This document shows positions 2,300 to 25,095 of a stretch of 64,000 nt of DNA, one piece after another (position 1 is the first letter of the stretch; every line of letters begins with the position of its first letter). The notes beneath the pieces were generated by a model that was not told the DNA's origin, made no database searches, and saw only the letters and a program-made list of their open reading frames with translations. The translations under genes were made by a program, and so were the position numbers. The DNA is from Candidatus Caenarcanales bacterium (GTDB taxonomy: Bacteria > Cyanobacteriota > Vampirovibrionia > 2-02-FULL-35-15), in assembly GCA_020050435.1 (NCBI GenBank), contig JAGVKQ010000020.1:140012-204011 (forward strand), read 5' to 3'.

Positions 2300-2836
2300 A
2301 TGTACAATCATTTAGAAGCAGCGGAACTTGCAAATTCTTTTTACTATACATTTAATACAATCCCCCAAGTAGTTACTACAATGATTGGATTATTAGGGGC
2401 ATTTAGCTTATTTAATATTCAACTACTTGATACTGAGCTTTTTAATACTGCAAATGTACTATTTACATACTACATGGAGTCAAACCTAAAATTGCCTTCA
2501 CCGACTTTATTAGAAACTAAGAATTTCACAGAGTTTTTAAGTTATATAAAGAGTCACCCAAAGCCTACAAATATTCATTTCGAGCCTAGGTTTGAAAGGT
2601 TTGAAATTTTACTAAGCAGAAAAATCAAGCTTGTGAAAGATTTGAAATATTCCCTTTTATTAACTTCTGTAATAGTAATTATTTCGATTATTTTTTTAAT
2701 GCTTACTCCAGATCTAACCAGATTAGAAACTACAGTTAATTGGATTGATTCGGCATGCTTTGGAGTAGGAATTGTTGGAGTTATGTTTTGTCTTAGAAGT
2801 TATTACATGCTTATTATTAATTCTCTGGATAAATAG
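2300..2836 (+). CDS. small integral membrane protein (about 3 TM), translationally coupled to aprB
   Basis: Starts 2 nt after the aprB stop. Hydrophobic helices MIGLLGAFSLFNI, LLLTSVIVIISIIFLMLT, ACFGVGIVGVMFCL. No recognisable family. Confidence 0.5.
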   Translation: MYNHLEAAELANSFYYTFNTIPQVVTTMIGLLGAFSLFNIQLLDTELFNTANVLFTYYMESNLKLPSPTLLETKNFTEFLSYIKSHPKPTNIHFEPRFERFEILLSRKIKLVKDLKYSLLLTSVIVIISIIFLMLTPDLTRLETTVNWIDSACFGVGIVGVMFCLRSYYMLIINSLDK

Positions 2837-2907
2837 GTAAATCGTAACATTTCACCTCGTAATACACCAATTTCATTTAATTAATAGCTAATCTAAATTT
2901 GTGCTTT

Positions 2908-3930
2908 ATGCTTAATAGAAATAAAATCTTTTTTTTCATATTAGTAGTATTTTTAAATTTACTTTTATGCCTGAAATCAAATGCCCATCATGGTGGGGAA
3001 GGAATTAGTGGTGTAGGTGTAGCAGGACCTATAATTACTATTCCTGCTTATACTCTGCCCAAAGGATTAAAATATATAAATCTTCTTACTGATTACACTA
3101 ACTATAATGAGTTTTCAGACAATAAATTAATGCAATTAGATAGAAGAGGTGAGCACATCCATAGCGCCGCACATCTTTTTATACCCAGTGTAGGATTAGG
3201 ATATGGATTAACTGATAACTTAACCATAGGGGTTAGAGTTCCTTATATTTTTAGATTTGGGTTAAGAGACATTCATGATGCAAAAGTAGGAAAAAGAGGA
3301 AATTCAATAGGCATAGGCGATATAACTTTTTTCTCTCAATATAGATTTTTAAAGAATGAAAAACATCATCTCCACGCGGCTCTTTTAACAGGGTTGAAAA
3401 TACCATCAGGAGTAAGAAGAGCAAAAGGAAGAGATGATGAAATTTTTGAAGCAGATGAACAACCAGGCTCCGGTTCATGGGATCCGTTAGTAGGTATTGC
3501 AATTAGCAAGAAAATAAAAGGATTTTCTTTAGATGCTAATGGCTTATATAAATTCACGACTAAAGGTGCACAGGGATCTAATCTTGGAGATCTTGTAAAT
3601 TATAATCTTGCATTGTCACACAGATTTTTAAGAGATCATGATTTAAGTTTTAGTAAAAAAAATGTTAACTCAAGATTCACCAATAAACTTTATGGTGATG
3701 CTATCTTTGAAATTAATGGCTCATGGTCAGCCAAACCAAATACATTTCATGGATTTATAGATCAGAATCACGGCGGGAATTTAGTTTATCTATCGCCTGG
3801 AGTAAGACTCACTTATGATAAGAAATGGATTTGGTATGCTTCATGTGGCTTTCCTACCATTGAAAACCTTAACGGCAGGGCAAAAGCCCCTAGCTTTAGG
3901 CTAGTTTCAGGAATTACGCGGGCTTTTTAA
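2908..3930 (+). CDS. putative outer-membrane beta-barrel protein, paralog 1 (signal peptide, HHGGEG motif, C-terminal Phe)
   Basis: Sec signal peptide then AHHGGEGISGVGVAGPIITIPAYTLPKG. Alternating beta-strand-like pattern. Ends ...ITRAF (C-terminal aromatic typical of OMPs). ATG 2908 is the likely start; the track begins at TTG 2899. Confidence 0.5.
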   Translation: MLNRNKIFFFILVVFLNLLLCLKSNAHHGGEGISGVGVAGPIITIPAYTLPKGLKYINLLTDYTNYNEFSDNKLMQLDRRGEHIHSAAHLFIPSVGLGYGLTDNLTIGVRVPYIFRFGLRDIHDAKVGKRGNSIGIGDITFFSQYRFLKNEKHHLHAALLTGLKIPSGVRRAKGRDDEIFEADEQPGSGSWDPLVGIAISKKIKGFSLDANGLYKFTTKGAQGSNLGDLVNYNLALSHRFLRDHDLSFSKKNVNSRFTNKLYGDAIFEINGSWSAKPNTFHGFIDQNHGGNLVYLSPGVRLTYDKKWIWYASCGFPTIENLNGRAKAPSFRLVSGITRAF

Positions 3931-3985: not shown

Positions 3986-4999
3986 ATGCTTTTTCAATTC
4001 ATATTCTCTTTAATAATTGCTTTTTTTATTTCAACTAATTCTTCTTTAGCTCACCATGGCGGAGAAGGTGGACTAGGTGGCGGTGCTGGAATAGCTGGAC
4101 CCATAGTAACTATACCTGCTTACCCATTACCAAAAGGAAGTAAGTTTATAAGCTTAATTACAAATTACAATAACGAAAACATTTTCTCAGATTCCAAATT
4201 AAGCCGCCTTGGCAAAAGAGGAGAAGAAGTAGATATAGTAGAAAATACACTTACCCCTTCATTAACAGTAGGATATGGTTTTACTGAAAAGTCTTCATTA
4301 AGTGCAAGTATTCCTTATCTCTTTAAATTTGGAATAAGAAGAGTAGAAGAGTCACCCGTAGTAACAAATAAAGGAAATTCAATCGGTGTAGGAGATATAA
4401 ATTTATTTGGCTTATATGAGTTGGTTCATAGTGAAAAGCATGATTTACATACAGCCCTTTTATATGGTCTAAAAATACCTACTGGAGTTAGAAGAACAAA
4501 AGACCATTCAGGAAATATATATAAAGCAGAGCATCAACCCAGTACAGGTTCTTGGGACCCTTCTTTAGGACTTTCCGTAAGTAAGCATGCAGGGATTTTA
4601 CATTTAGATGCAAATGGCATGTATAGATTTTCGACTAAAGGTATTCAAGATACTACCTTAGGAGATATAGTTTCATACAACTTAGCTACATCCTATTTAG
4701 TTGGAACTAAAAATACCAGATTTGATAAACTCTTTCCTAAAAAAATATTTGGTCATGAAAGTAGTTGGCATTTAATCGGAGAAATAAATGGCTCCTGGGT
4801 AGAAAAACCTAAAAGTCCAGAAGGCAGAGAAGAAAATGAAGGTGGAACGCTTGTCTATCTTTCCCCTGGAATGAGATTGATACTGGATAAGAAATGGGTT
4901 ACAAACCTATCAGTAGGTCTTCCTACTATTCATAATTTAAATGGTAGAAGGCAACCGCCAAATGTCAGAGTTATTTTAGGCGTTACGAGAGTATTTTAG
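3986..4999 (+). CDS. putative outer-membrane beta-barrel protein, paralog 2
   Basis: Signal peptide then AHHGGEGGLGGGAGIAGPIVTIPAYPLPKG. Collinear similarity to the 2908-3930 protein along the whole length. Ends ...VTRVF. Confidence 0.5.
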   Translation: MLFQFIFSLIIAFFISTNSSLAHHGGEGGLGGGAGIAGPIVTIPAYPLPKGSKFISLITNYNNENIFSDSKLSRLGKRGEEVDIVENTLTPSLTVGYGFTEKSSLSASIPYLFKFGIRRVEESPVVTNKGNSIGVGDINLFGLYELVHSEKHDLHTALLYGLKIPTGVRRTKDHSGNIYKAEHQPSTGSWDPSLGLSVSKHAGILHLDANGMYRFSTKGIQDTTLGDIVSYNLATSYLVGTKNTRFDKLFPKKIFGHESSWHLIGEINGSWVEKPKSPEGREENEGGTLVYLSPGMRLILDKKWVTNLSVGLPTIHNLNGRRQPPNVRVILGVTRVF

Positions 5000-5142
5000 A
5001 ACTCAGCTACAATTCCAAAACAAGCTATAAGAATCAACCAGAAAAAAAAGTGAAGATAGAAAAAGGTAAAGCTAAAGAAAATTTGTACCTGTGTTTTGCT
5101 GGTATCTTTTGCTATTAGTTTTGCATCTTTTACTGTAGCCAT
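4996..5142 (-). CDS. small hydrophobic protein (48 aa), last gene of the respiratory operon
   Basis: Read by eye, not in the ORF track: MATVKDAKLIAKDTSKTQVQIFFSFTFFYLHFFFWLILIACFGIVAEF. SD aagagga 6-12 nt upstream, overlapping the stop of the MvhD-like gene. Confidence 0.3.
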   Translation of the reverse strand: MATVKDAKLIAKDTSKTQVQIFFSFTFFYLHFFFWLILIACFGIVAEF

Positions 5143-5154
5143 ATTTTTATCCTC

Positions 5155-5559
5155 TTATGATTTCACTTCTGGAGCTGGTAAAGCATCTAAGTCTTTTTCA
5201 AAATGATTTAATTTATCTATCAAAGTTCCATAGTCACATTTTGCTAACCAATATCCACGTACTTTTTCTTTAGGTACTGTTTTTTTAATGTTTGGTGGAC
5301 GTGTGCCGAGTAGTCTTTCCTGACACCATTTGTTTCCTTCTCTATAGTGACAGTCACCTATCTGACAACCCATTACAAAAACACCTTCAGCACCTTGTTT
5401 GAATGCTTCCTCTATCATGATGGGCTGAATCATACCTGAACATGTAACTTCTAAAATTGAAACATTATCTTTTTCTACAAGCTTGTTATTTTTAACCCTT
5501 TTCTTAAGGTCTACACTTCTTTCACAAACAATTCCTAATATTTTCTTTTTTTTGCTCAT
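5155..5559 (-). CDS. MvhD/FlpD-like protein (methyl-viologen-reducing hydrogenase delta-subunit domain)
   Basis: VTCSGMIQP ... FVMGCQIGDCHYREGNKWCQ, the conserved Cys pattern of the MvhD/FlpD domain that accompanies HdrA/QmoB-type electron-transfer modules. Confidence 0.6.
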   Translation of the reverse strand: MSKKKKILGIVCERSVDLKKRVKNNKLVEKDNVSILEVTCSGMIQPIMIEEAFKQGAEGVFVMGCQIGDCHYREGNKWCQERLLGTRPPNIKKTVPKEKVRGYWLAKCDYGTLIDKLNHFEKDLDALPAPEVKS

Positions 5560-5569
5560 GATTTATTCC

Positions 5570-6694
5570 TTATGCAGGCTCCTTGAGAAGATCACTAATT
5601 TTAGTTATAACTTCTTTTGAATGATTTTGTGGAAGATCAATCGCTTTAAATGCACACGCTCCTACACAAAGTCCACACTCCGAACATCTGGCATCTATAA
5701 CTACTGCAAGCTGTTTATACTTAGGATGATCAGTTCTAGGTACCATGTAAATAGCTTCATAAGGACAATCTTTAGCACATAATGTACAACCAACACAATT
5801 GGTTAAACTAACAACAGCTGGTGCTTTTTCTTTATCAGTAACTAAAAATGGAAGAGCAAATAATAATGTAGTGGCTATAAAAACTATTGTCCAGACTATT
5901 AATGCAGGCATACCTGAGAACATAGGGAATATCCATAAATAGAACCAATCTAAAGGAAACTGAGTAGGCAATTTAGTAAGCACTGCTGGATTTACACTAG
6001 CTACTGGATAAACTGAAGCTGGAATCATTATGGATGAAAGAAGCAACAATCCTAGTCCAAGAGGTACGTCTGTAACCGGTCTTGAGATTCTTAAATAATG
6101 TAACCATAAGAGAAATAAGAGTGAAAATGAGATTCCAATATGGAAGAAAAAAGACATTGCTAAAGTATAGTGAGAAATAACATCACCATTAACAAAAATT
6201 TTAGCTAGTGGTAAACCCAAGAAAGGGATTTGCTTTAAAGCATCAGTCATAGCTAAAACTATCATGTATGATCTTTCATCCCATACAAGAATATATCCAG
6301 TTATACCTATGATTAACATTCCAATTAAAAGTACTACACCTGAATACCATGCAATCCAACGATACTTTCTATATCTGTCAGTGAAATAAACTCTAATAGC
6401 ATGAACCAATACTGCAATCATCATGGCATCAGCAGCATATCTATGTAAACCACGAATAATATTTCCAAATGGAAGTTTTGTAGTAATAAAATTGACTGAA
6501 ATATAAGCACTGTCTAAAGTAGGTTGATAATAAACAAATAAAAGAAGTCCTGTAATAAACAAAGTCCACATGAAAAAGTTTGGAACTGCACCATGATAGT
6601 AAAAAGGATTGTACTGCTGAGTAAAAACTTTATTTAAACCTTTTTCAAAAGTTATGGTGGCTTCTTGTAGTTTTTCTAATGTCTCTTTGTACAT
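5570..6694 (-). CDS. cytochrome b(6)-like membrane domain fused to a C-terminal 2x[4Fe-4S] ferredoxin domain
   Basis: Helix-B pair RGLHRYAADAMMIAVLVHAIRVY (H-x13-H) and helix-D pair HIGISFSLLFLLWLH (H-x13-H), typical of the cytochrome b N-terminal domain. C-terminus CVGCTLCAKDCP ... CSECGLCVGACAF = two CxxCxxCxxxC(P) clusters. Confidence 0.65.
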   Translation of the reverse strand: MYKETLEKLQEATITFEKGLNKVFTQQYNPFYYHGAVPNFFMWTLFITGLLLFVYYQPTLDSAYISVNFITTKLPFGNIIRGLHRYAADAMMIAVLVHAIRVYFTDRYRKYRWIAWYSGVVLLIGMLIIGITGYILVWDERSYMIVLAMTDALKQIPFLGLPLAKIFVNGDVISHYTLAMSFFFHIGISFSLLFLLWLHYLRISRPVTDVPLGLGLLLLSSIMIPASVYPVASVNPAVLTKLPTQFPLDWFYLWIFPMFSGMPALIVWTIVFIATTLLFALPFLVTDKEKAPAVVSLTNCVGCTLCAKDCPYEAIYMVPRTDHPKYKQLAVVIDARCSECGLCVGACAFKAIDLPQNHSKEVITKISDLLKEPA

Positions 6695-6702
6695 AACTCC
6701 TC

Positions 6703-6942
6703 TTACTTTTTAGCCTTTTCTTTAGCAGGGTTAGTTTCTTCATTATCATCATTTTGGGTAAGAATAATAAAAGAAACAGCAGCTAAAATCCCTAAGATTC
6801 CATAATATTTGCCAAATGCTACATCCTGGAAATTCCACTCACTAATACCAAGGAAATAGAGCAAACCTAATGTACCGCCAGCACATAGTAAAGCAACAAT
6901 CATTTGAATAGTATTTTTCATTTTGCTTTTCTCCTTATCCAT
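6703..6942 (-). CDS. small membrane protein (79 aa, 2 TM)
   Basis: Hydrophobic ORF packed between the cyt b genes; overlaps its neighbour by 25 nt. Confidence 0.4.
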   Translation of the reverse strand: MDKEKSKMKNTIQMIVALLCAGGTLGLLYFLGISEWNFQDVAFGKYYGILGILAAVSFIILTQNDDNEETNPAKEKAKK

Positions 6943-7187
6943 TCATAAGGACCAAATTCTTTACCTAAATTGTTTTTTTCTTTTTCTTCAAAGTAAATCC
7001 AATATCCAATAATAAATAGGGATAAAGCAAGTAAGAATAATGAGAAAACAGACATTGGTATATATTTAAATGTTTGATCAGCTGCAATCATTCTGCCTGA
7101 CTCAAAAAACATAGCTAATGCATAAGTAGCTGTACTAAAGACTATTATTCTGGCTATATTTATTTTTTCAATTAAGTTTTTAATCAT
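6918..7187 (-). CDS. small membrane protein (89 aa, 2 TM)
   Basis: Hydrophobic ORF; 4-nt overlap with the cytochrome b stop. Confidence 0.4.
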   Translation of the reverse strand: MIKNLIEKINIARIIVFSTATYALAMFFESGRMIAADQTFKYIPMSVFSLFLLALSLFIIGYWIYFEEKEKNNLGKEFGPYEWIRRKAK

Positions 7188-8509
7188 TGTGCAGGCATCA
7201 CCTCACCGACCATTTTCTTTCTAATTAATAAGTGCCACGTATAAGCAATCACTGTAGGGACCATACAAATACCAGTTCCTATTAACTGATCTTTTATAGT
7301 CAAGAAACCATTTAACAAACTAGGGAATGCCCAAAACATAACAAAAAGCGGACAGATAACATAAGCAATAAAATCCCCAACCATTACAGGCATTTTTTCT
7401 GGCTTTTCTGTTTTTTGTAAAATATACTGCCAGACAACACCAATCGCTATAAGTAGCCATGTACCACCTCTCCATATAGGTGGATCAGTATGAATATTTG
7501 CAATGTTCATTATGATAAGTGCTGAGAAAATAACAAACTCAATAAAGCCCATAATAACTACCATAAAGAAAATGGGTCTTCTAAAAATTTTAGTTTCAGG
7601 TCCTAAATCTAAAAATGGAAGTATAACTACAGTAAGAGGAATAAAAACAGTTAACGCTGTAGCCCAAACAGGTTCAATATATTTCAAGAACTGGTAAAGT
7701 GCAAGGAAATACCAATCTGAAAGAATAGGTAGTGGTGTAACACTAGGATCTGCTCTGTGTCCTATTTGTGCTGGCAATGCAATTGCAGCAAAGATAACCA
7801 TAGCTGTAGGTAATATTGCCATTTTCCAAGGCATGTTAAATCTCTTCAAACCATTTCTATAAAAATATAATTCAACTGCAATTAATGCAAGTAAACTAAA
7901 TGCAATATGAAAGCCATAAAATCTGGTCATGGTAGCTTGACCGATAGAACTACCACCAAGAAGAATCTGAGAGGTGTTTACACCGATGTGTGTAGGTCCA
8001 AGAATATAAAACTGCTCTAAGTATGTAGGAAATGTAGCAAAAACTTTTGTCGCCCAAAATGCTCTCTGATTCCAGATGAGAAGATACCCAGTAAGACCTG
8101 AGTACATTCCAAAAAGAAGTGTTACAAGACCAATAGCTACATTTAATTCTCTATTAGGTTTATAGTCTGCACAAATAAATATTCTATATAGTCTAATCGT
8201 AGCTGCAATAATAACTGCATCAGCACCATACTTATGAACACCTCTCATTAATGCACCAAAAGGAATTACATCCTGGATTTTAACGATAGAGTCATAAGCT
8301 TCACTAATAGAAGGTATATAAATAGCCATGAGTATACAGCCAGTAACCATGGTGATGACCCAAAATAACCATACAAGTGATCCAAGTGTATACCAAGGGT
8401 TTGTTTGAGCTTTATCTGCATAGTGTTCATCAAAAATATCAATGCCATTAATCATGGCTAGAACTTTATCTAGTAATGCTTTTGAAGATTTTTTAACTAT
8501 GTCGATCAT
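7184..8509 (-). CDS. cytochrome b of a Rieske/cyt b (bc-type) complex, long form 441 aa
   Basis: RGVHKYGADAVIIAATIRLYRIF, the cytochrome b helix-B heme-ligand block. Multiple further TM helices including a subunit-IV-like C-terminal part. Confidence 0.75.
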   Translation of the reverse strand: MIDIVKKSSKALLDKVLAMINGIDIFDEHYADKAQTNPWYTLGSLVWLFWVITMVTGCILMAIYIPSISEAYDSIVKIQDVIPFGALMRGVHKYGADAVIIAATIRLYRIFICADYKPNRELNVAIGLVTLLFGMYSGLTGYLLIWNQRAFWATKVFATFPTYLEQFYILGPTHIGVNTSQILLGGSSIGQATMTRFYGFHIAFSLLALIAVELYFYRNGLKRFNMPWKMAILPTAMVIFAAIALPAQIGHRADPSVTPLPILSDWYFLALYQFLKYIEPVWATALTVFIPLTVVILPFLDLGPETKIFRRPIFFMVVIMGFIEFVIFSALIIMNIANIHTDPPIWRGGTWLLIAIGVVWQYILQKTEKPEKMPVMVGDFIAYVICPLFVMFWAFPSLLNGFLTIKDQLIGTGICMVPTVIAYTWHLLIRKKMVGEVMPAQ

Positions 8510-8515
8510 GGTTTT

Positions 8516-9082
8516 TTACGCCACCCCTCCAGATTCAAGATCAGTAATTCTTAGTTTATTATTTTCAACAGTATAAACAAATTTTCTTGGTGGTCTAGGT
8601 GCAGGACCAGAAACAACTTTACCTTCTTGTTGGATATCAAATACACTTAAGTGACATGGACATGCAAAAACTGGACCATCAGGTCTATAGTTATATCCTT
8701 TAGCTACATCATCTGGAGCAGGTACATAGTTAAATACACAACCAAGATGAGGACAGATTCTACTATAAACAGCAAATTCACCAGTCGGTAGCCTTACAGC
8801 ATAACCAGGAATATCTTTAGTCTGAGTACCAATAGCTGTATATTCTTTATTTATCTGGGTAAAAGTAAATGCTTGAGCATCAAAGGCTTTAGGCATAAGT
8901 GAAAGATCTATTTCAACAGGAACTGCAGACCTAGGAAGATCTCCTCCTTGTAAATAATTTAAAGGTTTAATGGTAGGTTTTAAAAATCTCATTAAAGGAG
9001 ATACTGCTGCTGCTAATGCACCTAAAACAGGGATTGCTAATATTCCTTTTAATAAATTACGCCTTGTTGTCTCAATATCCAT
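8516..9082 (-). CDS. Rieske [2Fe-2S] iron-sulfur protein with twin-arginine signal
   Basis: Tat motif TRRNLLKG and membrane anchor. Rieske boxes CPHLGC and CPCHLS. Confidence 0.85.
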   Translation of the reverse strand: MDIETTRRNLLKGILAIPVLGALAAAVSPLMRFLKPTIKPLNYLQGGDLPRSAVPVEIDLSLMPKAFDAQAFTFTQINKEYTAIGTQTKDIPGYAVRLPTGEFAVYSRICPHLGCVFNYVPAPDDVAKGYNYRPDGPVFACPCHLSVFDIQQEGKVVSGPAPRPPRKFVYTVENNKLRITDLESGGVA

Positions 9083-9101
9083 TCCCTACCCCCAAATAAA
9101 A

Positions 9102-9917
9102 TTATTTTTTCTTATAGTCACTTTCATCAGATTGCTTGAAGTATTCATCTTTTCTAAGTACATCAGCTTCAGTACTATATCCAAACTGTCTAACGTACTT
9201 AACTAATTGCCATCTGAACTTATCATCAAATTCATAATGTTTTTGTTTATCTTCTCTTCCTGCCCATGGAGGCATTGCAGTCCATGGAATACCATTAGAG
9301 ATTTCATCAAATATTTTTTCATCTGTTTTTTCATACAATCTATCAAATTGGTTAAAGTTAGCTGGTTTTGGATTTAAATAGTAGTGAATATTTCCATCAG
9401 CAAAGCCTCTAGTACCATGACATACTGCACAATTGGCACCGAACTCTGTTTTCACTTTTTCAAAGTCTTCTGGCAATCCAAAAAGCTCAGACCTAAGATA
9501 CATTACAATATCCCATCTCTCTTTTATACTAAGATTTTCTTTAAATGATGGGTGTTTTGGATTGCTGGTAATTGTTTTAAATAAATGTGATGGAGTAACC
9601 TTGTTTATATAAGAGACAGTAAACTCGTGTTTATTAGGTTCTTTAGTAAAACTGTGACAACTAGCACAATTTGCAGCGTAGAATTTTTTACCTTCTACAA
9701 TGGATGGATCTTTAGTAGGATAAGCAAAATCTTCTCCGGCAGACTTTTCATCTATAAGAGGATTGGAATCAGACGGTAGGGAAACTTTTTTTAATGAGAT
9801 ATTTGACTGACAAGCAGATATAAGAAGTCCTACAACCACGATAGAACAAACCAATGTTATTGTTCTTGCTATTTGTGCTATTTTTTCTTTATCTTTCATT
9901 TTTTTATCAATACCCAA
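9102..9917 (-). CDS. diheme c-type cytochrome, lipoprotein (probable c1-equivalent of the bc-type complex)
   Basis: Signal peptide with lipobox LISAC. Two CxxCH motifs (CASCH, CAVCH). Confidence 0.7.
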   Translation of the reverse strand: MGIDKKMKDKEKIAQIARTITLVCSIVVVGLLISACQSNISLKKVSLPSDSNPLIDEKSAGEDFAYPTKDPSIVEGKKFYAANCASCHSFTKEPNKHEFTVSYINKVTPSHLFKTITSNPKHPSFKENLSIKERWDIVMYLRSELFGLPEDFEKVKTEFGANCAVCHGTRGFADGNIHYYLNPKPANFNQFDRLYEKTDEKIFDEISNGIPWTAMPPWAGREDKQKHYEFDDKFRWQLVKYVRQFGYSTEADVLRKDEYFKQSDESDYKKK

Positions 9918-10074
9918 AGAACGGAACCCAAGAAATTGTTGCCCATAGAAAAACTAAAAAGAATAAGATTATTAAAAATAAAGGTGGCTTATGATCACCC
10001 ATTCTATATTCTTCAGGTTTGGTAACCTGTGGTATTTGGCAAAGCGGCTGAAATTCATGCTTTTCTTCTGACAT
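9907..10074 (-). CDS. small membrane protein (55 aa)
   Basis: Read by eye: MSEEKHEFQPLCQIPQVTKPEEYRMGDHKPPLFLIILFFLVFLWATISWVPFFGY. ATG directly follows the stop of the upstream small ORF (taaATG). SD aggagg upstream. Confidence 0.3.
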   Translation of the reverse strand: MSEEKHEFQPLCQIPQVTKPEEYRMGDHKPPLFLIILFFLVFLWATISWVPFFGY

Positions 10075-10272
10075 TTACACAACCTCCTGAATACCATTTT
10101 CTTCTAGCATTTCATATTTTATATCTTCAAGATTATCTAATTGTCCTGACTTTAATGCCCAAAGAAAAATAACTCCTGCAAATACAAAAAATACTAAACA
10201 CATCCATGCAAACATACCAAGACCAGGCTTGGAAATTAAATCATTTACTACTTGTTCTGCTGTTACTTGCAT
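10075..10272 (-). CDS. small membrane protein, CcoQ/FixQ-like position
   Basis: 65 aa with one TM (GMFAWMCLVFFVFAGVIFLWAL), immediately downstream of ccoO. Confidence 0.35.
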   Translation of the reverse strand: MQVTAEQVVNDLISKPGLGMFAWMCLVFFVFAGVIFLWALKSGQLDNLEDIKYEMLEENGIQEVV

Positions 10273-10323
10273 ATTTTTTATTTTTCTAACCTTGAAACTT
10301 GTATCTTACAACTTGTAACTTGG

Positions 10324-11280
10324 TTAGTGTCCTCCCCCTGCACCAGGTGCTGGTCCATCAGTTTTAATAATCTCTGCTGGTTTTACTGAATTTAATTCAG
10401 CAGCAGAAGTTTTATTTACCTCAACCCATTTTTCTGGATCTATAGATTCATATCCTTTTGGATAAACTTCTGTTTCTCTAGGTAATGTTTTTAAGAAAGC
10501 TACTAAATACCATCTTTGTTCTTCTGTAAGTAATTTACCCCACTGAGGCATTCTAGTTCCAGGCACGCCTTCAGACACTCTCCAGAACCAAGTTACATCA
10601 TCATAATCTTTATAGAATGGTCTGCTAAAGTTAGCTGGTTTTTTAGCTATAGCAATAGCATTTGGTCCATTTCCTAAACCGTTGGTGCCATGACATGTAG
10701 CACAGTTCTGTTGGTAGATTCCACGTCCAGCATTCGCTGCAGCTGAGCCGTCTACATTTACTTTTCTTTTATCTAAAACTTTTCTAAGTTCGTCTGGTTG
10801 ATAGATTCTATGATATTTAACCATTCTCTTTTTACCAAGAGTTTGGATATAAGCAACAAGCTCATTCATCTCATCATCTTTTAAATATCCAAAAGGAGGC
10901 ATGATGGATCCAGGTGTCAATGTTCTAGGATTTTTCAAGTGAGATATATGCCATTGATCAGGATGTTTTTGACCTTCATTAGTAAGATCTGGACCTGTTC
11001 TAATAGTACCTAATACGTTTGGTGTTTCATATACATAGTCACCGGCTTGAGGTAATGGTCCGAAATCTCTATCCTGCGGTCTACTAAATTGACTATGACA
11101 ATAAACACAACCTTCTCTTACATAAATCTTTCTGCCTCTTGCTTCTTTAGGCGTGTACTCCACAGCAAACTCAGAAGCTGTTGGTCTGAAAATAAAATTC
11201 GGAAGTAAAACTGTAGTAAATGTAATTAGTCCAAAAGAGGCTAAAACTACAAATCCTGGAAGTATATAGTTTTTATTCAT
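10324..11280 (-). CDS. ccoO: cbb3-type cytochrome c oxidase subunit II (CcoO) fused to an additional monoheme c domain (CcoP-like)
   Basis: N-terminal TM. GRKIYVREGCVYCHSQFSRP and GTIRTGPDLTNEGQKHPDQWHISHLKNPRTLTPGSIMPPF closely match CcoO. A second CxxCH (CATCHG) lies in a C-terminal extension. Confidence 0.75.
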   Translation of the reverse strand: MNKNYILPGFVVLASFGLITFTTVLLPNFIFRPTASEFAVEYTPKEARGRKIYVREGCVYCHSQFSRPQDRDFGPLPQAGDYVYETPNVLGTIRTGPDLTNEGQKHPDQWHISHLKNPRTLTPGSIMPPFGYLKDDEMNELVAYIQTLGKKRMVKYHRIYQPDELRKVLDKRKVNVDGSAAANAGRGIYQQNCATCHGTNGLGNGPNAIAIAKKPANFSRPFYKDYDDVTWFWRVSEGVPGTRMPQWGKLLTEEQRWYLVAFLKTLPRETEVYPKGYESIDPEKWVEVNKTSAAELNSVKPAEIIKTDGPAPGAGGGH

Positions 11281-11281
11281 G

Positions 11282-12673
11282 CTACACCCTCGCCAATCCC
11301 GGTGGAACCATTGCTGGTTCTACAGTAGGCTCATCTAAGGGTTTTACTCCTCTAACTGTTTGAATAATATTAAATAATAAAAGAATATTTCCAAACCACA
11401 TCATTGCACCACCCAATGCTCTATAAATCCAATAAGGTACAAGCTCAACAACCCACTGACCTACTGGTATACCTAAATGCCAACCAGCAGATTGAACTAA
11501 CCCTGCTATGGTGAAAGCTGCAAAAAATATTAGGAATCCAATAAAAGTAAACCAGTAGTGAGCTCTAGCTAAAGCTACACTATAAATTTGTTTTCCTGTA
11601 ACTCTGGGGAAAATATAATAAATAGCACCCCAATCAAAGAATGAAAAAGTACCAAGAAGTGCTACGTGAGCATGACCTGGAACCCACTGAGTAAAATGAA
11701 TATACCAGTTAACTGATCTAGTTGCTTGAAATGGACCTTGAATACAAGTAACAAAATAAAAAAGTGCACCGGTTAAAACAAATCGAAGCGGTAAATTGTT
11801 AGCTACTTGCCACCAATTCCCCTTCATAGTCATAAAAAAGTTTGTAAGCACTGTAATAACTGGAATCACTAGAGCAACACTAAATACCACTGCAAGTGCT
11901 TTAAGCCACTCTGGCACTGGAGACTGCAAAATATGGTGAGTCCCTGTAGGTGCATAAAAGAATGCTATGGTCCAAAAACCAAGCATCGATAAACTATGAC
12001 TCCAGAGTGGTCTTCCTGAAAGTTTTGGAATCATATAGTATGCAATTCCAACTCCAAGAGTCGTAAACCACATTCCTAATATATTATGTCCATAAAACCA
12101 GTTAACAATTCCATCATTTAAACCATCTAATCTAACAAATGTTCTATTTCCTATAAAGTAAACAATAGGCATCCAAAAGAATGCACCGAGCATATACCAA
12201 AGACTTACGTATAGCTTTTTAACTTTTCTATTTAATACCGTTAAATAGACATTGTATGAAAGCGAAATTAAACCAACAACAACAATAATATCGATTGGTA
12301 CTGGAAACTCTGCATACTCACGGCCTTCTGAATAACCATTTAATAAACAAAGAACACCAGCAAAAATTGCAAAATTCCATACATAACATATGAAGTTAGC
12401 AAATTTTTCACTATAAAGCTTACATCTTGTGAGAGTAGGAATTATATAAAGAACAATTCCTATGTTTGCCATACTTAGCCAGCCAAATGCAACTGCATTG
12501 ATATGAGCAGGTCTGATTCTAGAAAAAGTAAGCTGAGGAATATTTGAACTAAGATCAGGAGCAACGAACTCTATGGCGCCGGTTAAACCAAGTGACATTC
12601 CTACCACAAGCCAAATAACTGCTGTAATTATAAAATTTTTACTTGCTGAGTTCTCTTTATCTGAAAGTATCAT
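11282..12673 (-). CDS. ccoN: cbb3-type cytochrome c oxidase subunit I (CcoN)
   Basis: Twelve-TM heme-copper oxidase fold. WFYGHNILGMWFTTLGVGIAYYMIPK and HAHVALLGTFSF histidine-ligand blocks. 2-nt overlap with ccoO. Confidence 0.8.
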   Translation of the reverse strand: MILSDKENSASKNFIITAVIWLVVGMSLGLTGAIEFVAPDLSSNIPQLTFSRIRPAHINAVAFGWLSMANIGIVLYIIPTLTRCKLYSEKFANFICYVWNFAIFAGVLCLLNGYSEGREYAEFPVPIDIIVVVGLISLSYNVYLTVLNRKVKKLYVSLWYMLGAFFWMPIVYFIGNRTFVRLDGLNDGIVNWFYGHNILGMWFTTLGVGIAYYMIPKLSGRPLWSHSLSMLGFWTIAFFYAPTGTHHILQSPVPEWLKALAVVFSVALVIPVITVLTNFFMTMKGNWWQVANNLPLRFVLTGALFYFVTCIQGPFQATRSVNWYIHFTQWVPGHAHVALLGTFSFFDWGAIYYIFPRVTGKQIYSVALARAHYWFTFIGFLIFFAAFTIAGLVQSAGWHLGIPVGQWVVELVPYWIYRALGGAMMWFGNILLLFNIIQTVRGVKPLDEPTVEPAMVPPGLARV

Positions 12674-12856
12674 TTTTTTTTATTTCAATTTTTTATTTTG
12701 ATTTTATTTTTTTAAAAGCCATAGCTAATTGTATTAAAGGTTAAGAAAAATCAAGGGGCTTAAAATAAATTCTTTATGAATACATATCTGATAAGAAATA
12801 AGTCGCCTTTGGTGAATCTGGCTCCAGAGGAGCGGGGGATAAGGGGTAAGCCGTAG

Positions 12857-12876
12857 AGACTTGATAAATCAAGTCT
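12857..12876. repeat. perfect 20-bp palindrome agacttgataaatcaagtct inside a GC-enriched island of the ccoN upstream region
   Basis: Direct reading. The gacttg/caagtc arms recur at 54458-54475. Confidence 0.6.
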
Positions 12877-13270
12877 AATATATGAAAACAATTCTTATAT
12901 TGTGTGGACAAAAAGATAAATTCAATATTGATATTTTTTCAAGATGCAAATCATTTTCAATAAAGATCGGTCAAATAATGAAAGTAAATATGTAATTATT
13001 TAAAAATAATTTTTTTAGGTTTTTAAATTGAATTTAAGCAGCAAGTAAATGTGGTTAGTTTTATAAATGGGCCGGGAACACCGGTGGAACTTTTTTATTA
13101 TCAGAAATAAATTCCGTTTCAAAAAAAATATTTTTTCTTATTATCAAAAATGCTTTCTGATAACAACCACAGAAAAGCATTTCACGAGGAACAGATCATT
13201 TCATATTGCCGACAATGTAGAGACGCCCTGATGGTGCATCTCCATTAAATATGAATGAAATGAGGTTCCT

Positions 13271-14542
13271 GTGCTTGTAAAAAAAGGTCTAACTAATATC
13301 ATTGAAGATGAAGATATTTTTGAATATAAAGATTCAGAACATTTATATACAAGCAGTTATTCATTAAAAAACACTTGGAGAAAAGAAGGTTCGGCAAGAA
13401 ATTTTGGTCATCCAATGCACTCTATGGCATCTAGATCAGGTTCATTTCCTCCAGCGCTTGCTGATTATTTTATAAGCAACTTTTCAAGAGTTGGGGATTT
13501 AGTTCTTGATCCATATTCAGGAAAAGGAACAACACCTTTTCAAGCATGCTTATTAGACAGAGTGGGTTTCGGTATAGATGTAGCACCGGAAGCATATGTT
13601 TTAACAGGAGCAAAAGTAAGCTGCATAAATCATGAGGAAGCCATTGATTATTTAAATGCTATCAAGTTTGGAATATCAAACACTAATATAAAAGATGTGC
13701 CACCTGATGTTAAAGTGTTTTTCTCCACTAAAACTCTGGCTCAAATACTAGTAATCAGAGAAAGATTATTAGAAGATTTAGGACTAGAATCAGACAAATT
13801 AGACTATGATAATGGGAAAGTTTTTCATATAGCAAAAACAAGAAGAGAACAATTAGCACAGTACTGGTTAGGGATTTTAACTGGAATATTACACGGCTCA
13901 TCCTCATACAGCCTGAGTCTTCCATGTTCACATTCATTTTCAATGGCTCCAAACTATACAAAAAACTATGCAAAAAAACATGGGTTAAAGAAACCAGACA
14001 GAAATGTAAAAATCTGTATGATTCAAAAATCTTTTTACTTACAAAGTGCAGGAATAGCACGTGTTCAAGGAAAAGCATACTTAGGAAAAGCACAAGAACT
14101 TCCTGATTCATGGGAAGAAAAAATAGATCTAGTGGTAACCTCTCCACCATATTTCACAGCACAAAGCTATGCATGGGACAACTGGCTTCGTGAATGGCTT
14201 TTAGGTTTTGATTTTAAAAATGTAAGAAAACAAACTACACAGACAGCAAGCTATGAAAAATATTCAAATGCTATGTATCTTTTCTTAAAAGAATCACATA
14301 GAGTTTTAAAACCAGGCAAACGTGCTTTCGTAGTAGTAGGTGACGTTACTAAAAAATCTGGTGATGAAAAAATAGTAATCAGAACCAGTGACGTCATAGC
14401 TAATGAAGGTAAAAAAGCAGGGTTTGATGTAGAGCTAATAATAAACGATGACATTCCACCTACTAAAAGATACAATTCATCATTCTTACAAGCAAATCAA
14501 GGTTTGACTATAGATAGAATTGTTTGTTTGAAGAAGAAGTAA
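13271..14542 (+). CDS. DNA methyltransferase, N6-adenine/N4-cytosine type (alpha-class motif order)
   Basis: Motif I DPYSGKGTT near the N-terminus and motif IV SPPY (VVTSPPYFTAQSY) about 210 aa later. GTG start with SD gaggt. Slightly GC-enriched relative to flanks. Confidence 0.75.
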   Translation: MLVKKGLTNIIEDEDIFEYKDSEHLYTSSYSLKNTWRKEGSARNFGHPMHSMASRSGSFPPALADYFISNFSRVGDLVLDPYSGKGTTPFQACLLDRVGFGIDVAPEAYVLTGAKVSCINHEEAIDYLNAIKFGISNTNIKDVPPDVKVFFSTKTLAQILVIRERLLEDLGLESDKLDYDNGKVFHIAKTRREQLAQYWLGILTGILHGSSSYSLSLPCSHSFSMAPNYTKNYAKKHGLKKPDRNVKICMIQKSFYLQSAGIARVQGKAYLGKAQELPDSWEEKIDLVVTSPPYFTAQSYAWDNWLREWLLGFDFKNVRKQTTQTASYEKYSNAMYLFLKESHRVLKPGKRAFVVVGDVTKKSGDEKIVIRTSDVIANEGKKAGFDVELIINDDIPPTKRYNSSFLQANQGLTIDRIVCLKKK

Positions 14543-15217
14543 TTAAAGCTTAAGGTTTACATCAAATTTATTTGGAGCACCATTTCTTGATACAACTAAT
14601 CCACTACCAATTATTGATACCAACTCATCTACCCCAAAACCATCAAGAGTTAAATTAGGATCAGCTAGTAAAACTCTTCTGGCTAAGAAATTAGGAACTG
14701 GCTGACCAGATGTCAAAGCTTTAGCTTCAGTCTCTGCAGCTTCTGCGTCCCATTTAGCAATCAGAGATTCATTATCAGCAAGAAATTGTTTAAATTGTAT
14801 GAAAGCATCATTTAGTTTCATGTTTGGAACTGAAGCTGGCATTTTAGGGTTAGTAAAAGCTATAGGACTATCTCCTGTTTGAATTCCAGGACCATATGAA
14901 ATAGTAGTTTGGCGACCAAATATAGTAGCTTTAAACCCTAATGCCTCTTTTCTATCAGGCTTTTTTATAACAACTTCTACATTTACTCTTTTATTTGCAG
15001 TGGATGTTCGAACATTAAAAAGAGTGGGTGAAAAATCAAGTCCATTTGTACATCTATCATTTAAAAGATCTCTTAATTCATTTACGGAAGTAGTAATATC
15101 ACCATTCAATGATATAAGAGCGTGATTACCAATTTGAGATATGTTTGAACCAAAACCTAATCCATTTGCTAAACCAGTACGATTAAAACTATTTAAAGTA
15201 ACAGCTGCAGTTGACAT
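14543..15217 (-). CDS. hypothetical protein (224 aa)
   Basis: Long ORF convergent with and abutting the methyltransferase. No recognisable motif. Confidence 0.4.
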   Translation of the reverse strand: MSTAAVTLNSFNRTGLANGLGFGSNISQIGNHALISLNGDITTSVNELRDLLNDRCTNGLDFSPTLFNVRTSTANKRVNVEVVIKKPDRKEALGFKATIFGRQTTISYGPGIQTGDSPIAFTNPKMPASVPNMKLNDAFIQFKQFLADNESLIAKWDAEAAETEAKALTSGQPVPNFLARRVLLADPNLTLDGFGVDELVSIIGSGLVVSRNGAPNKFDVNLKL

Positions 15218-15867: not shown

Positions 15868-16587
15868 ATGAATAGAATTCCAAATGGGGGCATTACGCCT
15901 CCCACTCCACCAATTCCTCCCAGAGGTCCAAATGGTCCCTATGAAACTCCAGGTGATGATGAAAATCTAATCAAAGCAGAATTTGAATTTGATCCTTATC
16001 TTGTAGAACACTACCCTGAAGTAGCAGAGAGGATAGCTGAAACCATTAATCTTATAATTCCACTTAGACCTGATTTATTAGATGTGCTTTCTGATTCTAA
16101 TGTTAAATATTTCATTGGTGTAAGAGAAGATTTAAAATCTATGGTTGAACAATTCGCCGGAATAAAAGAACCGTTAAATAAATATGAATATGAAAAACAA
16201 TTTGACTTCGTAAAAAATGCTGCTGGTTATACTGGCTGCTGTTTAGGAGAAAAAGATAATCCAAGAAGTACAAAGGCTTCATTTATAACTTTTTTCACTC
16301 CTAATATAATCGATAGTAGATATGAGTTAATAGCAGAAATAATTAGACAGCTTACTTTTTCAAAAGAAGCACATAAACTTTTCAAAGACCATGTAGAAAG
16401 AGGCATTCCAATGAATGTAAGCTATCCAAGATTATTAGCAAAAGGAGATGAAGCCGTAATCAGTGCATTAGAGGAAATAAAAGGAATGCTTTATCCACAA
16501 ATTGATAATGAACTGAATACTCTACTAGCAGCAGTAAAATCTTCTCATGTAGAAAATATAGCTAGAATTGCAGAAAGAGAAAATTAA
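15868..16587 (+). CDS. hypothetical protein with Pro-rich N-terminus (239 aa)
   Basis: SD aaggagatcaccATG. PPTPPIPPRGPNGP N-terminus. No recognised domain. Confidence 0.5.
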   Translation: MNRIPNGGITPPTPPIPPRGPNGPYETPGDDENLIKAEFEFDPYLVEHYPEVAERIAETINLIIPLRPDLLDVLSDSNVKYFIGVREDLKSMVEQFAGIKEPLNKYEYEKQFDFVKNAAGYTGCCLGEKDNPRSTKASFITFFTPNIIDSRYELIAEIIRQLTFSKEAHKLFKDHVERGIPMNVSYPRLLAKGDEAVISALEEIKGMLYPQIDNELNTLLAAVKSSHVENIARIAEREN

Positions 16588-24132: not shown

Positions 24133-25095
24133 GTGGCTATAATACTATTCATGTTTAAGATCAGAACACCACAAATTAGTGATTTTTCAAAACTTGAGCC
24201 TTTATTTCAAAATCATCCTTTGTTTTCGTCCCTCAATGCAAACAAATTTATTTGTATAGCTCAAACAATTATTCCTTATAATTTTAGAGTCATGCCAAGT
24301 ATTCATTTGGCAGTAGAAAAAGAAAAGATACTTGGTTTTATAATTTTAAGCTCTGTATCCCCCTCAAATAATGCCTGGCAAATTGATGATGTTTATATAC
24401 AAGAAGAAGTAAGAAAGCATGGAATAGGAGAAGAACTGGTTAGATATGCTATATCAGTCTATGGCGGATATGGAATAGAGCATTTTTTAGTAGAAGTGGA
24501 TTCTCAGAATTTTCCTGCCCTATCTTTATTTCATCAATGTGGTTTTAGAAGATATGCAAAAGTTCACTTTTACCAAAAAGAGATGGGGGCGGAAGCCTTA
24601 CCGGTTTTGGGAAACGAATTCATTATTAGACCTCAATTAAATATTGACTTAAACGATATAGAAAAACTAGAGCTATCTATAATCCCTCCTGACTTAAGAC
24701 CAGCACTAGGCAGATCAAAAAAATATTTCAAATCTAAAAAAGATGCTTTAGTTCTTATTGATAAATCCAGAAAATTATTAATAGGCTGGGCTCAAATAGA
24801 CTGCATTAAAGACAACGATTGCCTGATTGAAATGTTAATAAGTCCCGGATGGACACATTTATATAAACCATTTCTAGATACCATAATCAGTGAAAGATTA
24901 CTCTCAAAAACAAATAGCTTCAAATTAACAATTAAAGCCACAGACTATAATACTGATCTTTCAAATATTCTTACTGAATCAAAATTTTTACCAGTAGAAG
25001 TTAAAGAACTCTTAGTAAGAACAGTTTGGCAAAAAGCCAAAGAGAAATCTAAACAATCAGCTAATGTGGGAGCTCCGTCTATAGCACCGACTTAG
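24133..25095 (+). CDS. GNAT-family N-acetyltransferase (possibly tandem GNAT folds)
   Basis: RKHGIGEELVRYAI acetyl-CoA-binding motif A. Confidence 0.5.
   Translation: MAIILFMFKIRTPQISDFSKLEPLFQNHPLFSSLNANKFICIAQTIIPYNFRVMPSIHLAVEKEKILGFIILSSVSPSNNAWQIDDVYIQEEVRKHGIGEELVRYAISVYGGYGIEHFLVEVDSQNFPALSLFHQCGFRRYAKVHFYQKEMGAEALPVLGNEFIIRPQLNIDLNDIEKLELSIIPPDLRPALGRSKKYFKSKKDALVLIDKSRKLLIGWAQIDCIKDNDCLIEMLISPGWTHLYKPFLDTIISERLLSKTNSFKLTIKATDYNTDLSNILTESKFLPVEVKELLVRTVWQKAKEKSKQSANVGAPSIAPT

Follow-up and report, generated by a model that had tools for sequence, protein, structure and literature searches.

The window analysed here is a stretch of 64,000 nucleotides (nt) from a Candidatus Caenarcanales bacterium (contig JAGVKQ010000020.1, G+C content 33%), a member of the Melainabacteria (Vampirovibrionia). 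Its minus strand carries, between positions 4996 and 12673, one tightly packed operon of 11 genes, which abut or overlap their neighbours and encode, in this order, CcoN, CcoO, CcoS, a cytochrome c, a Rieske protein, a full-length cytochrome b, two small proteins, a second cytochrome b fused to a ferredoxin, an FlpD/MvhD-family protein and a further small protein of 48 amino acids (aa). An initial annotation, made from the nucleotide sequence alone, had proposed that a Rieske/cytochrome b set is accompanied by a further cytochrome b paralog, which is fused to a 2x[4Fe-4S] ferredoxin, and Pfam and NCBIfam matches of the respective genes confirmed this. It overlooked, however, that the 'ordinary' cytochrome b has lost the ligands of haem bH, and that the operon runs on from the bc-type genes into the genes of a cbb3 oxidase. 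The conserved loss of haem bH in the subunit bearing the quinol oxidation (Qo) site, together with an iron-sulfur exit or entry on its partner, is the point of interest of this locus and, judging from the sequences, predicts a non-canonical asymmetric bc complex.

The cytochrome b–ferredoxin fusion (374 aa; 5570..6694, minus strand) matches the Pfam family PF00033 (Cytochrome_B) over residues 25-203 with a score of 104.9 bits (cutoff 27.2, E = 6.2e-30), followed by a dicluster ferredoxin at residues 299-351 (Fer4_7, E = 1.3e-8; Fer4 region 293-353). As had been claimed, both bis-His pairs are present on the bundle of helices A-D, i.e. H84/H185 for haem bL' and H98/H199 for haem bH', and the four histidines are invariant in 73/73 orthologs. 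The hydropathy profile likewise revealed the extra transmembrane (TM) helices that had been noted, two in number (210-228 and 265-283), which follow helix D and align with helices E and F of the full-length paralog. Since this brings the total to six TM helices, the ferredoxin domain is expected on the cytoplasmic side, the same as the N-terminus. The fusion comprises helices E and F only, without a match to PF00032, and its motif xDWF (D249-F251) lacks the proline; the Qo region is divergent, and the cd-helix departs further from the canonical sequence than that of the full-length paralog. At the place where cytochrome b6 has its haem-cn Cys motif, the fusion has Y33-H34 (Y-H-G-A, without Cys).

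The cysteines of the ferredoxin domain are C300/303/306/310 and C337/340/343/347. Both of the clusters described as CxxCxxCxxxCP in the initial annotation are thus present, but only the first motif (300-311) has this form, whereas the second (337-348) reads CxxCxxCxxxCA. In an alignment with 38 relatives (47-85% identity), all four histidines and eight cysteines are invariant, as are D249 of the xDWF motif and the block Y32-Y33-H34-G35-A36. The wider family, which was sampled as the best 150 matches of a phmmer search against 1.84 billion cluster representatives, gave a similar picture, the four histidines being retained in 149-150, the eight cysteines in 145-148 and D249 in 147 of the 150 representatives. 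The initial annotation had named poorly conserved ferredoxin cysteines as a reason to doubt the fusion, and these counts speak for their conservation. H34 is specific to the Melainabacteria clade and occurs in only 9/150 of the representatives. It had also been considered that the fusion could be an artefact of assembly or the result of a frameshift. This was rejected, because the same undivided open reading frame (ORF) is found in 489 database clusters (search of 5.8 billion proteins) and in at least 579 genome stretches; the top 120 listed relatives are mostly full-length proteins of about 370-400 aa. An AlphaFold2 model of the fusion reached a confidence (pLDDT) of about 90 in the membrane part and of less than 50 in the ferredoxin domain.

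The full-length cytochrome b (7184..8509, minus strand) consists of a b6-like N domain and a subunit-IV-like C domain and matches PF00033 (91.2 bits, cutoff 27.2, E = 9.8e-26) and PF00032 (E = 4.4e-8). Its ligands of haem bL, H92 and H201, are present, but R106 and Y215 occupy the positions of the haem bH ligands, so that only one of the two bis-His pairs exists, and no other histidine was found in helices B and D of this protein. The replacement is not restricted to the window. Among 67 locus orthologs, the position of b6 His100 is occupied by Arg in 56/67 and by Lys in 10/67, that of b6 His202 by Tyr in 67/67, and the equivalents of b6 H86 and H187 (haem bL) are retained; the pattern H-R/K-H-Y was present in 120/120 further database homologs. 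Three alignment methods, BLASTP and HMMER among them, were concordant with regard to this replacement. The ligand spacing on helix D is one residue shorter than in b6, and this one-residue gap is shared by both paralogs, the best solved-structure match of each being cytochrome b6 (E about 1e-27). In the full-length paralog, the Gly on the bH side of helix C is relaxed (A33/G19/C11), whereas it is invariant in the fusion. The Qo site, in contrast to the bH ligands, is kept (…LTGYLLIWNQRAFWATKV…, ILSDWYFL). ILSDWYFL is found in 120/120 homologs, the block of the cd-helix is invariant, and the Qo region ranks among the most conserved parts of the protein, which points to strong constraint on the Qo site. 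A haem-cn Cys is lacking here as well, the sequence at that place being T-L-G-S.

The gene for the FlpD/MvhD-family protein (134 aa; 5155..5559, minus strand) starts 10 nt downstream of the fusion, and its product matches PF02662 with 77.7 bits (cutoff 22.3, E = 9.8e-22), in agreement with the stand-alone MvhD-like protein of the initial annotation. Four of its cysteines (C12, C40, C65 and C70) are invariant in 71/71 orthologs and presumably carry a [2Fe-2S] cluster. The ferredoxin domain of the fusion and FlpD correspond to successive segments of the HdrA2 profile (568-642 and 670-772 of NF040770), and among solved structures the ferredoxin domain matches HdrA 562-640 (PDB 5odc) best, so that the earlier comparison with modules of heterodisulfide reductase and Qmo complexes was apt. 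Because the two are collinear with the C-terminus of HdrA2 and FlpD is fused to its counterpart in 121/150 of the wider-family representatives (local search), FlpD is a true partner of the ferredoxin domain. Genes for HdrA, a hydrogenase or a formate dehydrogenase were not found within 10 kb, neither in the window nor at the loci examined. A conserved partner gene of FlpD downstream of the operon was not found either, the neighbours varying between loci. In six Obscuribacterales loci (L027, L045, L052, L054, L068 and L071), FlpD has a C-terminal tail of about 100 aa that is rich in Ala, Pro, Lys and Glu; some of these tails hold AEAKPAEK repeats, and no domain was detected in them.

In the textbook view, bc1 and b6f complexes are homodimers, which recycle the second electron of quinol via haem bH to a quinone-reduction site. 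The enzyme encoded here probably does not run this textbook Q cycle, and the loss of the haem bH ligands from the full-length cytochrome b suggests that the low-potential chain probably cannot do without the second cytochrome b, which would then be more than an add-on. We propose that the two cytochromes b would form the heterodimeric core of one complex, because a subunit with haem bL only needs the bL of a partner, and because electron exchange between the two haems bL within the bc dimer is regarded as established in the passage of PMC5600118 that cites Swierczek et al. 2010. With quinol oxidation taking place at the Qo site of the full-length subunit, the first electron would pass via the Rieske protein, the dihaem cytochrome c and the cbb3 oxidase to O2, and the second electron would cross from bL to bL', since the full-length subunit has no bH as an exit, and continue via bH', the two [4Fe-4S] clusters and the [2Fe-2S] cluster. 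At the cytoplasmic end, this wire would deliver the electron to a soluble or peripheral acceptor, instead of or beside the reduction of quinone at the n-side, with the reduction of O2 providing the pull, so that the favoured reading amounts to a quinol-based electron bifurcation.

We put the probability of this reading as a whole, i.e. a cbb3-linked Rieske/cytochrome b complex with two unlike cytochromes b and an outward wire, at roughly 45%. Its parts differ in strength. The asymmetric architecture is likely in our view, and an outward direction of the wire towards a cytoplasmic acceptor is suggested tentatively, the odds being slightly against it. That the Q cycle was abandoned altogether and all low-potential quinol electrons are exported via the wire, which would amount to an O2-driven bifurcation, we regard as rather unlikely.

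Further genes of the operon would supply the high-potential branch of this scheme. The first gene encodes CcoN, the catalytic subunit of a cbb3-type haem-copper oxidase (11282..12673; TIGR00780 ccoN, E = 1.3e-83; NF011053, E = 3.6e-92), and its orthologs match PF00115 (COX1) in the orthologous loci and keep their position in about 60 of them. It is followed by CcoO fused to a second, CcoP-like c-type cytochrome domain (10324..11280; NF011054, E = 4.2e-43; TIGR00781 ccoO, E = 2.1e-29) with the haem motifs CVYCH (58) and CATCH (193), and by a CcoS/FixS-like single-helix protein of 65 aa (10075..10272), which remained below the cutoff of TIGR00847 ccoS (E = 6.3e-5); its orthologs in L004, L005 and L088 match PF03597 (FixS). 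The dihaem cytochrome c (9102..9917; PF13442, E = 1.5e-16; PF00034, E = 1.4e-14) is anchored in the membrane by one N-terminal TM helix and has the haem motifs CASCH at residue 84 and CAVCH at residue 163. The Rieske [2Fe-2S] protein (8516..9082; PF00355, E = 4.6e-8) possesses a Tat motif (RRNLLK) and a TM anchor. Its cluster motifs CPHLGC (110-115) and CPCH (141-144) are invariant in 62 orthologs, and the gene is syntenic in about 60 loci. After the second cluster motif (CPCHLSVF, window positions 8651-8662), the Ser is kept and Phe replaces Tyr, a combination which, according to the Ser/Tyr rule for Rieske proteins, suggests a cluster of intermediate potential.

Three small membrane proteins complete the operon, all on the minus strand like the genes above. 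Those encoded between the two cytochrome b genes, one of 89 aa with one strong TM helix (6918..7187) and one of 79 aa with two helices (6703..6942), have no Pfam or NCBIfam match, but both are conserved in position. Homologs of the former sit between both cytochrome b genes in many loci, the latter has positional equivalents in every locus with gene calls, and two small genes were called at this place in L001, L002, L004, L005 and L087-L089. The last gene (4996..5142) was taken from the ORF list and encodes the single-helix protein of 48 aa; phmmer found homologs directly downstream of FlpD in about 70 loci, and genes of 39-48 aa were called there in L001, L002, L005, L087 and L089. A scan of positions 4700-13400 for promoters and terminators was uninformative (27 promoter-like matches vs 35.5 expected, seven terminator-like matches vs 4.7 expected), and neither Rfam families (gathering threshold) nor tRNA genes were found in the 64-kb window. 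Divergently from ccoN lies a gene for an N6/N4 DNA methyltransferase (PF01555; 13271-14542, plus strand), and a gene of the same family is located upstream of ccoN in L001. The ORFs at 14543-15217, 15868-16587 and 25092-26636 of the window have no Pfam match.

A genome scan with the fusion, in which one genome per species was considered, identified at least 579 relatives. Almost all of the best 80 belong to Melainabacteria/Vampirovibrionia, i.e. to Obscuribacterales including Obscuribacter phosphatis, Vampirovibrionales including Vampirovibrio chlorellavorus and Caenarcaniphilales-like bins, and relatives with 74-79% identity carry the source name Candidatus Melainabacteria. The operon recurs in about 75 Melainabacteria genomes, and the gene order is constant in essentially all loci found from the fusion that have enough flanking sequence, with L055 and L064 as exceptions. 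When loci were searched from the full-length cytochrome b instead, the same operon was present in 3/3. Apart from the two exceptions, the order of the window is that of L001-L074, L085 and L087-L089. From this we conclude that the arrangement is not rare, contrary to the initial annotation, since it is found in every examined Melainabacteria locus with enough flank and the wider family comprises hundreds of clusters. Four records with this Melainabacteria-type operon (L045, L046, L047 and L060) are titled Drouetiella sp., Planktothrix sp. or Oculatellaceae cyanobacterium; these oxygenic cyanobacterial titles probably belong to mislabelled bins.

The wider family extends to several phyla, where it is present in hundreds of clusters at 50% identity and MvhD is mostly fused to the cytochrome b–ferredoxin protein. 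Nearly all of the best 150 relatives span both the cytochrome b and the ferredoxin of the query (most from about residue 6 to 370) and most are 480-790 aa long. The E-values of the fused proteins against the fusion range from 1e-86 to 1e-46, with a similarity of 29-45% over the full length. When ten relatives were tested with Pfam, eight of them had cytochrome b, ferredoxin and FlpD in a single chain. In 87/150, the protein is extended by one more helix and by a periplasmic domain of about 150 aa that belongs to no Pfam or NCBIfam family. In P0127, P0143 and P0196, the C-terminal 200 residues or so comprise this extra helix and the beta-rich periplasmic domain, in which two Cys are conserved; P0196 has a cytochrome c domain after it. 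The gene surroundings of the family were inspected in 11 loci of Deltaproteobacteria, Nitrospirota and related metagenome-assembled genomes (MAGs). In 8/11 (L076, L078, L079, L081-L084 and L086, e.g. 3975-15000 of L084), the fused gene follows genes for a COX2-like protein, a divergent COX1 and SCO1, and none of the loci has a Rieske gene. This COX1 scores only about 60-70 bits against CtaD, and L084 additionally has a CcoNOP triple fusion. The cytochrome b–FeS–MvhD family is thus tied to haem-copper oxidases across several phyla, and COX2-COX1-SCO1 together with the fused cytochrome b–ferredoxin–MvhD protein looks like an undescribed oxidase-linked module.

These loci raise the question whether the two cytochromes b of the window belong to one complex at all. 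The fusion and FlpD could form a self-contained, probably homodimeric oxidase-associated module, such as an electron conduit between cytoplasm and periplasm or a quinol dehydrogenase in a redox loop, and the Rieske protein and the one-haem cytochrome b could work apart from it. Besides the relatives in Deltaproteobacteria and Nitrospirota MAGs, which occur with COX2-COX1-SCO1 and without Rieske protein and second cytochrome b, this is supported by the report of Kao & Hunte that such clusters have no Rieske gene (PMC4122944), by the existence of a SCO1-cytochrome b-ferredoxin fusion (P0167), and by L055 and L064 of the Vampirovibrionales, where the fusion and FlpD are encoded separately from the cco and Rieske genes (in L055 they are flanked by rpoC1/rpoC2 and unannotated ORFs). 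However, a cytochrome b with a Qo site and haem bL only would leave the second electron without an outlet. Engineered bc1 complexes with a haem bH knock-out are nearly inactive unless the partner monomer provides bH. Moreover, the synteny is fixed in about 70 genomes, with the genes translationally packed. We therefore consider two separate machines improbable.

For the heterodimeric complex, the direction of the electron flow is the less certain part. Outward export is favoured, because it explains the loss of haem bH, the nearby high-potential sink and the occasional modules for NAD(H). Such a sink adjoins the family in each context, i.e. Rieske protein, cytochrome c and cbb3 oxidase in the window and COX2-COX1-SCO1 in 8/11 loci of the other phyla. 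A NuoF-like gene is located between two fused paralogs in L084 and L086, and in P0258 the cytochrome b is fused to flavodoxin-FAD-NAD (diflavin/NAD) domains. High-potential sinks, NuoF-like modules and diflavin fusions can be viewed as the ingredients of a bifurcating quinol oxidiser.

The same architecture could also be used in the opposite direction. Here, a cytoplasmic donor, e.g. reduced ferredoxin or flavodoxin, a hydrogenase or an NAD(P)H module, would feed electrons via MvhD and the 2x[4Fe-4S] ferredoxin into bH' and an n-side quinone site, which would be supplied with one electron each by the Qo site (via bL, bL' and bH') and by the wire. This would make the complex a donor:cytochrome c oxidoreductase with a bound Q cycle, similar to the ferredoxin:plastoquinone route proposed for b6f. 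In line with this, it is on the donor side that MvhD serves as adaptor in Mvh-Hdr, and the collinearity of the ferredoxin domain and FlpD with HdrA2, together with the 5odc match described above, agrees with such a role. A high degree of conservation marks the n-side surface of the fusion, which includes the invariant Y33-H34-G-A at the b6 haem cn position, with the Melainabacteria-specific H34. The transfer from a low-potential donor to haem bH would moreover be downhill and would not require crossing of the membrane. Complex I of related lineages lacks NuoEFG and may rely on ferredoxin (PMC6349859). The NuoF-like NADH module beside relatives and the relative with diflavin/NAD domains fit an input as well, but modules of the FNR and NuoF type are reversible, so that these fusions do not set a direction. 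On the other side, an input leaves the loss of haem bH in the Qo-bearing subunit unexplained, no residues of a quinone site were identified, and no donor gene is linked to the operon. Taken together, this explanation is nearly as good as outward export, which makes it a serious competitor, albeit one that we would on balance not expect to be correct.

Several observations also weigh directly against the asymmetric complex with an outward wire. The heterodimer is a prediction from genes and sequences, and the ferredoxin domain is modelled with such low confidence that the model fixes no distance between bH' and the first cluster. Since the family in other phyla occurs without a Rieske protein or a second cytochrome b, the module can function alone, and even within the Vampirovibrionales it is detached from the cco and Rieske genes in the two loci mentioned. 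The direction of flow is not constrained by the sequence, and MvhD serves as an input wire in Mvh-Hdr. The operon contains no gene for an acceptor, and neither a conserved acceptor nor a conserved donor for MvhD was found within 10 kb of the loci. In addition, menaquinol electrons under membrane potential are estimated to reach only about -150 to -250 mV, which is too weak for ferredoxin. The highly conserved n-side face of the fusion including Y33-H34 could be a quinone-reduction site, which would restore a Q cycle across the dimer, and the invariant Tyr and the Arg/Lys of the full-length subunit could hold an unusual haem.

Beyond the operon's end, on the plus strand and convergent with it, the window contains genes for an AprA-like flavoprotein (573 aa) and an AprB-like ferredoxin (145 aa) at 153-2298. 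An MvhD domain is also found in QmoABC, the known partner of AprAB, where it is combined with FeS domains and a cytochrome b. A Qmo-like link could therefore be imagined, in which the wire exchanges electrons between the quinone pool and the adjoining AprAB-like enzyme, given that these genes are located 2.9 kb from FlpD and are adjacent in L001, L007 and L008 as well. The adjacency is, however, confined to the clade of the window, and the fusion and FlpD are kept across all aerobic Melainabacteria without this adjacency. Within 10 kb of the operon, the loci indicate that AprAB-like genes are missing from most of the genomes that carry it. The AprA-like protein, which passed NF005331 with 797 bits, fails the cutoff of TIGR02061 aprA (426 vs 641.75 bits), and its identity is 73-84% within the clade and 59% outside. 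HdrA-like QmoA/B are missing as well, and the cytochrome b belongs to the bc type rather than to the NarI/HdrE type. A Qmo-like function is thus very improbable. The AprAB-like pair was rejected as a general partner of the wire due to its lineage-specific occurrence, and it is at most a lineage-specific acceptor.

Close relatives of the AprA-like protein were found only in the Melainabacteria clade of the window; the next ones, at an identity of 59% or less, include proteins of Halanaerobiales, Nitrospirota and archaea that are annotated as adenylyl-sulfate reductase. The AprB-like gene is followed by a gene for a 178-aa membrane protein with three helices (2300-2836, plus strand), which has no family match and is not conserved at this place in L001. 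Further towards the end of the operon, two tandem paralogs follow (2899-3930 and 3986-4999, plus strand). They have signal peptides, an HHGGEG motif near the N-terminus and a weak match to PF13557 (Phenol_MetA_deg, outer-membrane channel-like), and one copy adjoins the operon in L008.

If both cytochromes b share one complex, the operon would provide a natural test of electron transfer from bL to bL across the dimer, for which engineered enzymes have so far been the only demonstration. Moreover, it would be a widespread candidate for Rieske/cytochrome b complexes that give low-potential electrons to cytoplasmic partners or take them from there. Such a cytoplasmic exchange was so far proposed for the anammox complexes and for the ferredoxin-dependent cyclic flow of b6f, and it was demonstrated in neither. 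Should the Q cycle indeed have been abandoned, the operon would encode a bifurcating respiratory complex in which the reduction of O2 drives the formation of reductant. Such a complex would be conserved throughout the class that is sister to Cyanobacteria and related to the Rieske-less oxidase-linked modules of other phyla. Because the organisms are the closest non-photosynthetic relatives of Cyanobacteria and both paralogs are b6-like, the operon furthermore bears on the origin of the n-side chemistry of b6f, i.e. haem cn and ferredoxin.

Parts of this operon and of the protein family were described before. Melainabacteria possess a 'complex III-IV operon' with 'two cytochrome bc oxidases', as stated in the excerpts that attribute it to Soo et al. 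2017, and petB/petC were reported beside O2 reductase genes (Matheus Carnevali et al. 2019, PMC6349859). The window shows the same operon in the same lineage, its cbb3 genes preceding those for cytochrome c, the Rieske protein and the two cytochromes b, so that this gene content was already recorded. None of the accounts examined, Soo et al. 2017 itself not being among them, mentions the ferredoxin fusion, MvhD, the small subunits or the missing bH ligands.

Concerning the fusion, the initial annotation had seen a likeness only to a few anammox-type complexes, but the family was already named the 'PDWF-FeS clade', which comprises cytochromes b fused to 4Fe-4S and the MvhD delta subunit in clusters without Rieske genes (Kao & Hunte 2014, PMC4122944). 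Both share a cytochrome b of the bc type that has helices E-F and the motif D-W-F, followed by 2x[4Fe-4S] and MvhD, as well as all cofactor ligands and a clear homology over the length of cytochrome b and ferredoxin; this relatedness was established with fused database proteins. Of the four features of the clade, two are found in the window's fusion, which has MvhD in a separate gene and Rieske in the same operon. The first residue of its motif is not Pro, it lacks the long periplasmic C-terminal extension of most relatives, and it lies in a Rieske/cytochrome b/cbb3 operon next to a cytochrome b without haem bH. The same study described a cytochrome b of Alicycliphilus fused to ferredoxin and flavin reductase domains. 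Dibrova et al. 2017 distinguished a subfamily of large cytochrome b-containing proteins without known function and a cyanobacterial subfamily with one haem ligand replaced, and a study on Chloroflexi listed a b6 + FeS + FlpD protein among the neighbours of nitrite-reductase/haem-copper (NOR) genes.

The Rieske/cytochrome b complexes of the anammox type likewise combine bc membrane hardware with cytoplasmic redox modules, here an NAD(P)-binding FeS flavoprotein subunit, according to the sections on Kartal et al. 2013 and de Almeida et al. 2016 in PMC5600118 and to PMC12954380, and a transfer of the low-potential quinol electron to a cytoplasmic acceptor was proposed for them. In contrast to these complexes, the operon of the window encodes no NAD(P)/flavin and no multihaem or HAO-like subunit, its cytoplasmic module is fused to the second cytochrome b, and the sink is a cbb3 oxidase. 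With HdrA2, QmoB-QmoC and Mvh-Hdr, the operon has in common the succession of ferredoxin domain and MvhD, which corresponds in order to the C-terminal 200 residues of the HdrA2 profile. It differs from them by lacking the HdrA flavoprotein core, the CCG domains of HdrB/C and nearby hydrogenase or Hdr genes, and by its cytochrome b, which is of the bc and not the NarI/HdrE type. The hallmarks of QmoABC are accordingly missing, as the operon has neither an HdrA-like flavoprotein nor a cytochrome b of the HdrE/NarI type, its own being of the bc/b6 type, and a conserved association with genuine aprBA genes does not exist.

Cytochrome b6f is related in that both paralogs are b6-like, the organisms are sister to Cyanobacteria and a module of the ferredoxin type lies on the n-side, at which b6f is believed to accept electrons from ferredoxin; the difference is that no haem-cn Cys exists here and the ferredoxin is covalently attached. 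A further parallel comes from the laboratory. Swierczek et al. reportedly engineered, in 2010, asymmetric bc1 dimers with one haem bH knocked out, which function via transfer from bL to bL. If the heterodimer holds, the two systems would share the combination of one cytochrome b without bH and a partner with bH. The engineered enzymes are homodimeric laboratory constructs, whereas the asymmetry predicted here would be laid down in two separate genes and conserved throughout a whole class of bacteria.

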